From positions 28,086,001 through 28,150,000 of the forward strand of contig CM022672.1 of assembly GCA_012295275.1 (NCBI GenBank): DNA of 64,000 nt. The letters run 5' to 3'. Source of the stretch: Chrysomallon squamiferum. Taxonomy: Eukaryota > Animalia > Mollusca. Shown piece after piece: positions 56,601 to 60,292 of this stretch. The position numbers and the translations under genes were made by a program. The notes beneath the pieces are model-generated. The model searched no databases. It worked only from the letters and a program-made list of their open reading frames with translations, and was not told the DNA's origin. How positions within the stretch are numbered: position 1 is the first letter of the stretch; each line of letters opens with the position of its first letter.

Positions 56601-59600
56601 AAGATTAAATTGGAGAACGCTAAATGCCCTGAGCGTAACCTTATTATATTATTCAAAAGAACAAAAAAAACATATATATATATATATACATACATACACA
56701 CATAAATATACACATACATAACTATAATGACATTACCAGACAAAAATAATATAAATAATGATTATTAATCTGGTTGTTGTTGCTGGTTTCTATGGAAACA
56801 AAAGAAGCAGGAAGCGGCTTTGTTCGGCTTTGATCGGCCGTGTGTGTGTTTTGACAGATGAGAAAATGTAAATTAAATGACAGGCTAGCACGAAATTATT
56901 TATCTTGTTTACTTTTACGTATTCCGAGATTCAACACAATATAAATCTGGCTATGTTCATTTCAAGATTCCAGTAGAAAACTAAATAGTTTGTTTGCGAC
57001 AAAAAGATTTTGTAATTTCATATAAATAAATAAATTATTGCACGAACTGTAATTATACTGAAACAATCATTAATAACAAAAGATATTTTATATAATATAC
57101 GAGCAGGTACTCCTTTTATCACTGCAACTACTATTGCTACTGTGATTTTTACAACTACTACTACCACTGATACTGCTGTCCATCTTATTACTGTTATCTG
57201 CCACTAGTACTATAATCACTACCACCACTGCTACTACGGCTATTACTACTTCTGCGCATTAATATTAATATATATAACTGTTACTATTACTACTGCTGCT
57301 ACTATTATTGCTACTATCATTACTACCATCACCATTGCTACTACAAATATATGCCACTAGTACTAAATACATATTTTAACTACTACTACTACTACTACTA
57401 TTATTATTATTATTATTATTATTATTATTATTATTATGCTGCCGAAAACGATTATTATAATTATGCCAACGACGTTGTGATCTCTAGGGGAATGATGATG
57501 ACGGCGTGTGATGTTGCAGCTATAACGAAGCCATGGGAAATTCAACAAGAGATAGCGCAACTTGTGGCTGGTGAATTTTTTGAACAAGGAGACATAGAAA
57601 AAACACAGCTGGGCAAAAAACCTTTAGTAAGTGGAGTCATTTTGTGGCGACAACATATTTGCCAAATTAATTATATTATGTGTGTATAGGTGTGTACGTA
57701 TATATGTATTGGTTAATGTATAAATTAATTAACGCAGGGACAGTCAGTAAATACTGTTTTATCAAGATTTAATAAGAACCATCTATCTTCAAATTATTGT
57801 CTGTAGCGTAATTATTTCAAATATTTTTATTTATATATATCAAGTTCACATCACATATTATACTCACTCGAGCAATAAGTTCTGATGACACAGAATTAAT
57901 TACAAACGAAAGATTACTCCTTTTATTTCTTTTGTCTGCCAAATTTCAATAATGTTTTTGTGGACGCTAGTTACTACTGATGTGTGTACTTTCATCAACG
58001 CATCGAAGCATAAGCAATGTTTTCTTTTGCGAATAGTTTAATGCTAATCAGAAAATTTGAAATGGCTCATTCATTTTTTATAATTTTTAGCCGATGATGG
58101 ACCGCGATAAAAAGGACGAACTTCCTAAAATGCAAGTTGGTTTTATTGACGCAATCTGTTTGCCCGTTTACAGGGTATGTATGACGTTTTCTTTTAAATC
58201 TCTGGTCAAAACAATGTATATTATTATTAATTATATACATTTACATATAAACAAATTGATATATACACACACACACACACACTCACACACACACACACAC
58301 ACTCACACACTCACACACATGACCCGTCATAAATTCACCGACTCATTTATGACAAACAAACAAAAATTCGTATTAGTATTTATCGAATGTTTGGGTAGCA
58401 TGCGACTGTAGTCTAATAAGAGATATTGCATATTAATTAAATAACATTATTATTATTATTATTATTATTATTATTATTATTATTATTATTATTATTATTT
58501 AAACGAAAATACAACAGAAATAAATATTTTTATTTATTATCTTCAAAGCAGATATACAGATTTTTTGTCAAAACATTTGTACACATATGTATATATATAT
58601 ATATATACATTCATTTTGATGTTGTGAATGTTAATTTTATAAAATGTTTGAATATTGTTTTGATAAAATGTTGCGCTTGGACACCTCAATTTAAGATGTT
58701 TGCTGAAGAATGGCCAGGACTGAAGCCTCTTCTTGATGGTTGCTTTAACAACCGTCAACGTTGGGTGGGGCTATCTCCCGACGGTGAAGAACAGGGTGAT
58801 GCTTGCATGGAATATACTGTTTAATTGTGTTTGAGAGTGGCTTCTCATATTTATTTTTAGTATGTGGAGTTTTGTAACACACTAACGCACTGGCAGAAAC
58901 TCAGATTTATCACATTGATGGCAATTTTACTTACCTCAAGTATGTACACGTCTTTTTTTATGAGTGTGTGTGTGTGTGTACGTGTATATATATATATATA
59001 TGAATATATTGCATATATGTTAATTTGGCTCGTTTTGGAAATCGCCAGAAAACGAGTGAACAAATAAACAGACAAGAAATAAATTAATAAATTAATTAAC
59101 AACTTCTGTGACAATAATTGTAAGAACTTCCATAACTGATTGTTTTCAGTACGATTGTTTGAAGATTCTACATGTAAGATAGTTGCCGTCAACGAGATAA
59201 TTTATGTGTTTCATTTGTTAGTTGATGCAATATTTTCTATTTCAGAGCAATCTCGTGTGATGCACTGCGTGTGCTGATGTTGTCATTTTTAGATGTGTGT
59301 GCTTGTCAAAGCAAAAAGCACAAATATTTCAAAAATTAAATTTTTTACATATACAGTTAGCCTCGATCAGGAATCAAGAAAATGACGTTATGACGCAAAC
59401 AAATTATTTTTTGTAAGCTAAGACTTCAACAGAATGTTTAGAAAAAGTATATAATTTTATCTCATTTTATTTGTTTATTTTTATTTTTATTTTTTTTTCT
59501 TATCGGCTGAATGGAACTGTATATAATAGTTTTTAAACAAAATTATGTTGCTCCAGAAAACTAAATTTTGAACCTTTCGGCCATCTTCTCACACAGAAAA

Positions 59601-60292: not shown

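Follow-up and report, generated by a model that had tools for sequence, protein, structure and literature searches.

Does one phosphodiesterase gene in this organism choose between two versions of the last helices of its own catalytic domain, and if so, how old is that choice and what does it alter? The question is raised by a 64-kb stretch of DNA, referred to here as the window, in which two diverged segments stand one behind the other after the exon that encodes the MQVGFID motif. They are called exon A and exon B below.

The host gene and its two last-helix exons

The host gene is long and intron-rich and lies on the + strand of AT-rich DNA. Its first large coding exon (17030..17623, + strand), encoding the N-terminus and the start of GAF-A, is 87% identical to residues 2-196 of the Gigantopelta aegis cGMP-specific phosphodiesterase (P0003), the best of 389 matches, which makes a related snail the likely source, and the G. 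aegis protein can be followed through the window one exon after another. The G. aegis forms contain two GAF domains and a PDEase_I domain (Pfam), together with the invariant glutamine, and their top match among solved structures is human PDE5A, with 670 bits against 519 bits for PDE6. In a phylogeny of the constant catalytic region they group with insect Pde6 (SH-aLRT 97), where coral, rotifer, spider and Priapulus genes are also placed, and vertebrate PDE5 is the sister of this Pde6-type group, the tree having been built without named PDE6 and PDE11. Judged by sequence, the host gene is an invertebrate PDE5/Drosophila Pde6-type GAF phosphodiesterase. Residues 327-369 of the G. aegis protein, a proline-rich linker, gave no tblastn match at E<0.01 in window positions 29443-45468, and the lengths of the isoforms suggest that more small alternative exons lie within this interval. 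A GC-richer island in an intron at 41060-41800, with up to 55% GC in open frames, is possibly a transposon remnant.

The exon that carries the invariant glutamine motif (QVGFID; 58091..58174, + strand) is constant, ends in phase 0 and lies 5' of both exons. Exon A occupies 58696..58795 (+ strand; 100 nt) and exon B 60175..60292 (+ strand; 118 nt). The preliminary description had claimed that two separate segments after the MQVGFID exon encode the same structural element, and the peptides at 58696 and 60175 do translate in that way; alignment and splice-site reading likewise bear out that the two are gapless relative to each other, begin in phase 0 and end at a phase-1 donor. They share 11 of 26 residues at the protein level and 36 of 78 bases in the DNA, and at position 6, the hinge position, A has Trp and B has Asn. 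A scan with a helix-16 profile built from homologous peptides (cut-off 15) matched exactly these two exons in the 64-kb window, with scores of 61.6 and 64.4, and gave zero matches on its reverse strand. Downstream, a common exon that encodes part of a disordered tail (62532..62728, + strand) offers a phase-1 acceptor, and the start of the next tail exon is seen at 63964..64000 (+ strand), where the window ends; the unaligned letters of an X9 contig past 62728 match it, and its frame is open. With A or B alone, followed by 62532-62728 and 63964 onward, the frame stays open to the end of the window. Neither an assembly artefact nor a second gene accounts for the pair, as the DNA contigs of data sets X1 and X6 match the region and the contigs of X10/X11 carry A and B on one contig.

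Distribution across animals and age of the pair

The distribution of the pair was surveyed by three homology searches (up to the best 120 matches each) and three cluster look-ups (up to 15 members each). Among the matches listed, 37 species entries have two or more records; at least 27 of them have both forms, ten have one form only (nine B, one A), and none has more than two forms. These 37 entries are spiralian and ambulacrarian; the Nucella entry consists of two unlinked models, one entry merges two Mytilus species, and most of the supporting records are RefSeq models. The pair is found in Mollusca (snails, bivalves and a chiton), Brachiopoda, Nemertea, Annelida, Hemichordata and Echinodermata. 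Position 6 separates the two forms, with Trp or Phe in one and a non-aromatic residue in the other, and each of the 21 species pairs compared combines one Trp/Phe with one polar residue. In Strongylocentrotus, sperm phosphodiesterase 5 (NP_001029121 / AAZ22857) is the A form, and the predicted isoforms X1 and X2 are the B form.

Among the records listed, insects have the aromatic (Phe) hinge type alone, and the spider, Priapulus, coral, rotifer and vertebrate PDE5 records have the non-aromatic hinge alone, a pattern that within Ecdysozoa suggests reciprocal loss of the two exons. The ecdysozoan hinge residue itself is Gln in spiders and Priapulus (P0285-P0288, P0317) versus Phe in insect Pde6. 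Second PDE5-like genes were observed in Patella, Haliotis and Babylonia (P0052, P0055, P0056, P0040), and among the records listed these are of the non-aromatic hinge type alone. Amphioxus, tunicates, cephalopods and crustaceans do not appear by name among the matches listed.

Genomic contigs offer a further view of exon structure. In coral-like, rotifer-like and arthropod-like contigs, their taxa being assigned by similarity, the same intron follows the glutamine exon and the next exon is present as a single copy. It stays single over 3-10 kb downstream in the rotifer-like loci, 3 kb in the coral-like locus, and 5.3 kb and 2.7 kb in the arthropod-like loci L034 and L035. None of the 64 metagenome-contig loci shows a second copy, and the mollusc-like ones end too soon (L001 about 330 nt past the start of A). 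In the mollusc-like contig L001, the first exon after the constant one, at 2991-3118, is of A type and has an AAG acceptor.

An old tandem duplication, as the preliminary description had supposed, is supported, and with both forms occurring in six phyla it is probably far older than could be seen from the letters of one genome. On the simplest reading, which we consider probable, the pair arose once, near the bilaterian ancestor; part of this reading is that B would be the ancestral type, as in corals. When the exon peptides are placed on a tree using all 28 columns, 2 changes suffice for the A/B label as against 14.3 in shuffles, a result that depends on position 6, by which the labels are defined. 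Removal of this column raises the number to 8, and neither a clade of all A exons (p 0.196) nor an ambulacrarian clade of A and B (p 0.329) is rejected by the AU test.

The alternative that survives best is independent duplication in several phyla, with one copy converging each time on an aromatic hinge residue, to which we assign roughly one chance in five. The unrejected ambulacrarian clade is compatible with it, convergent evolution is reported to be common among such events (PMC9741552), and when position 6 is left out, 95 of the 149 between-phylum comparisons go to within-species similarity and 33 to A-A/B-B similarity. Such likeness within a species is expected anyway, however, since A and B pack on the same domain, and repeated duplication demands that the same exon be copied, and the same residue be split, several times over. 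The A/B orientation across the six phyla moreover ranks first of 32 phylum swaps, whether position 6 or positions 5-7 are left out. Individual comparisons argue in the same direction: by eye, the A exons of the chiton and Ptychodera agree at 19 of 27 positions and the B exons of Lineus and Saccoglossus at 21 of 27, whereas the own A/B pairs of these four animals agree at 15-17 of 27.

The mostly shared tail, exon use and a probable route to exclusivity

With a single origin as the preferred reading, the next matter is what is exchanged when A replaces B. The proposal that the helix is swapped together with the tail is not supported, as A and B can both be joined in frame to 62532 and the tail is common to 15 of 20 species pairs, in which the last 8 residues (a CaaX-type tail) are identical between the two forms. 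The G. aegis RefSeq isoforms X2 (A) and X1/X3 (B) are such a case. An A form with its own tail and no CaaX was found in Littorina, Biomphalaria, Ruditapes and Owenia only; the fifth non-sharing pair, from Diadema antillarum, consists of two truncated models. It could be argued from these four species, and from the stop that is reached soon after read-through of A's donor in both the window and L001, that A is mainly an alternative terminal exon which drops the CaaX and changes localisation, with the helix differences secondary. We consider this quite improbable, because the 15 pairs with a common tail include the closest relative, the aromatic/polar split is independent of the tail, and B too has tail-less forms. 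The CaaX-less tail of A in four species nevertheless indicates that a coupling of A to localisation may exist in some lineages.

Further variation was seen at this end of the gene. The A-type exon of L001 reads through to a stop, like isoform X2 of Ruditapes. Exon B can be extended by 11 nt to a second donor (60293..60303, + strand), which shifts the frame into a short, very basic tail without CaaX, and G. aegis isoform X4 is this form of B with the later donor. The stop of the extended form lies 137 nt above the next junction, and its transcript may be a decay target. Contigs of X9 also cover intron sequence at 62740-62900, just 3' of the donor at 62728, which possibly represents a retained intron, pre-mRNA or library DNA.

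In this organism, B is joined to 62532 at GT..AG in contigs of X9 (RNA) and X7. Exon A is covered by no contig of X7, X8 or X9, which says little, since the constant exon 58091-58174 is likewise uncovered; contigs drop rare forms and are filtered, and an exon missing from them is not thereby absent. Of the junctions that had been singled out for checking, 58174 to 58696 and 58174 to 60175, the contigs reach neither, and the one from B to 62532 is covered. The records of relatives are more informative on exon choice. In the RefSeq set of G. aegis, isoform X2 uses A and isoforms X1, X3 and X4 use B, and the 18-nt difference in length between the two exons equals the 6-aa difference between X2 (974 aa) and X1 (980 aa). 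The DNA contigs of a related organism (X10/X11, one sample) have A and then B with 1539 letters between them, and the order of A before B is the same in the window, in X10/X11 and in a Bulinus gene model. It is very hard to believe that A has died or fallen almost out of use in this species: three runs without an RNA contig over A, its weaker pyrimidine tract (64% versus 86% in the acceptor of B) and its non-consensus donor point that way, but its frame is open, its AG and GT are intact, and it keeps 19 of 23 core residues with G. aegis, the same as B; the introns of the window and of X10/X11, by comparison, fail to align at 80%.

We infer that exon A is used in this species, and we hold with high confidence that A and B are an either-or pair in working use. 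The preliminary description stands in that both exons are intact and conserved; their use one at a time is borne out in the protein records of relatives. Both motifs occur in a single chain in 1 of 420 glutamine-motif proteins, namely the Bulinus gene model with A first, which is probably a gene-prediction artefact.

How the two exons are kept apart is a separate matter. Joining A to B does produce a stop, as had been stated, though not an immediate one, since two codons of B are read before the TAA; this stop lies 110 nt above B's donor. Skipping both exons also shifts the frame. The stronger claim that frame enforces exclusivity has to be given up; what frame does is to make the A+B form a likely decay target. 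The likely route to exclusivity would be a regulated choice of A or B combined with decay of the frame-shifted A+B form, whose premature stop would probably lead to its clearance by nonsense-mediated decay. The 50-55 nt rule for this decay comes from mammalian work, not from molluscs. Exon B, with its strong pyrimidine tract and its donor at 60292|GT, is likely the default, since it has the stronger acceptor and is the form found in RNA and in most single-form species; A, with its AAG acceptor and the donor GTGATG (58795|GT), would be the regulated choice with the weaker acceptor.

The signals noted earlier around A are all present, namely the AAG acceptor, a 134-nt AG-free zone upstream (58560..58693, + strand) that includes a TA run and is a putative element, and TGCATG at 58804..58809 (+ strand), just 3' of A's donor, which we take to be an Rbfox-type motif. 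The zone and the hexamer are candidate elements and weak evidence for regulation, since the window has 3067 AG-to-AG gaps of which 23 reach 134 nt or more, so that such zones are common in this DNA, TGCATG occurs 22 times in 64 kb (a chance of about 1.5% for a given 45-nt stretch), and the motif is absent at the equivalent place behind the A-type exon of the mollusc-like metagenome contig L001.

In some mutually exclusive exons, steric hindrance or RNA pairing is the mechanism of exclusion, but neither is required of the class. Steric exclusion is not supported here by an A-B intron of 1379 nt and an AG-free zone of just 55 nt at B. For docking or selector pairing of the RNA, the 25 longest of 45 inverted repeats turned out to be microsatellites or low-complexity runs, and no credible candidate for such pairing emerged among them. 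A CA repeat above A (58239-58313) and a TG repeat below it (58950-59015) are complementary and could loop A out; these flanking repeats are probably chance microsatellites. The minor spliceosome was ruled out by eye, as the donors lack its consensus.

Consequences for the catalytic domain and relation to known systems

In the AlphaFold2 models of both the A and the B form of G. aegis, the helix spanning 788-816 is interrupted at 817 and a new helix starts at 818; the block pLDDT is above 90 over 811-840. By alignment, residue 817 corresponds to position 6 and to PDE5A 836, and residue 834 to PDE5A W853; this Trp is kept in 21 of 21 A exons and 21 of 21 B exons. W853 is described as sitting in the Gln817-Gln775 hydrogen-bond relay that sets cGMP specificity (PMC10488055). 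The metal- and purine-binding residues are encoded by exons common to both forms. Given these residues and the invariant Trp, both forms would be expected to fold alike and to be active on cGMP, and they are unlikely to differ in substrate.

What distinguishes A from B in a conserved way is the residue at the helix 15-16 hinge, aromatic in one and non-aromatic in the other, and in addition the helix-16 surface and a linker of 10-16 residues. The choice may act on stability, dynamics or the binding of partners in certain tissues and not on substrate choice, a functional reading to which we give somewhat less than an even chance. Taken as a whole, the findings are probably best explained by tandem last-helix exons that are used either-or, originated early in bilaterians, have B as default and A as the regulated form, and serve tissue tuning. 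A bolder and rather doubtful extension is that the bilaterian ancestor possessed a two-state switch in the catalytic domain, with the Trp/Phe hinge for sperm or neurons and the polar hinge for general use, which was kept in six phyla and of which the aromatic state became fixed in insects and the other state in vertebrates, spiders and priapulids. If this were true, an unrecognised regulatory surface would exist at the helix 15-16 hinge of PDE5. The pair singles out one residue, at the position of PDE5A 836, as varying naturally between two states and as open to test in a drug target that has been studied in depth, and a catalytic-domain switch kept across protostomes and deuterostomes would join rather few splice events of such age.

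The class of exons is already known, and the A and B isoforms sit unremarked in RefSeq. No description of the pair was found in the literature searched, which included few subscription journals and had genome-paper supplements outside its scope, and PDE terms gave no match in the main text and one supplement file of PMC9741552. The exon events treated in that paper resemble the present pair in being tandem homologous exons, one per transcript, that are ancient and keep their core residues; 21 human tandem exon substitution events are dated there to the bilaterian clade, and the Ca-alpha1T event was kept across protostomes and lost before chordates (PMC9741552). The A/B pair differs from the catalogued events in that it spans spiralians and ambulacrarians and was not seen in the vertebrate and insect records examined, and human- and fly-based catalogues would for this reason miss it. 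It is a new and probably bilaterian-old case of tandem exclusive exons.

Vertebrate PDE5A has the same GAF-GAF-PDEase layout; its catalytic domain superposes at a TM of about 0.94 (target length), and exon A aligns without gaps to its residues 831-853 and beyond. Its splice variants are reported to differ at the N-terminus (PMC11763789), and among the records listed, those of mammals and a newt show one helix-16 type. The invertebrate protein, unlike PDE5A, extends into a long tail with a CaaX-type motif at its end. Drosophila Pde6 and its insect orthologues belong to the same clade as the host gene (SH-aLRT 97) and have a CaaX-type tail, but in contrast to the window they show, among the records listed, the Phe hinge alone. 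Sea urchin sperm phosphodiesterase 5 (original paper Su and Vacquier 2006) is an orthologue that carries the A form; the cloned sperm enzyme is just one of two forms.
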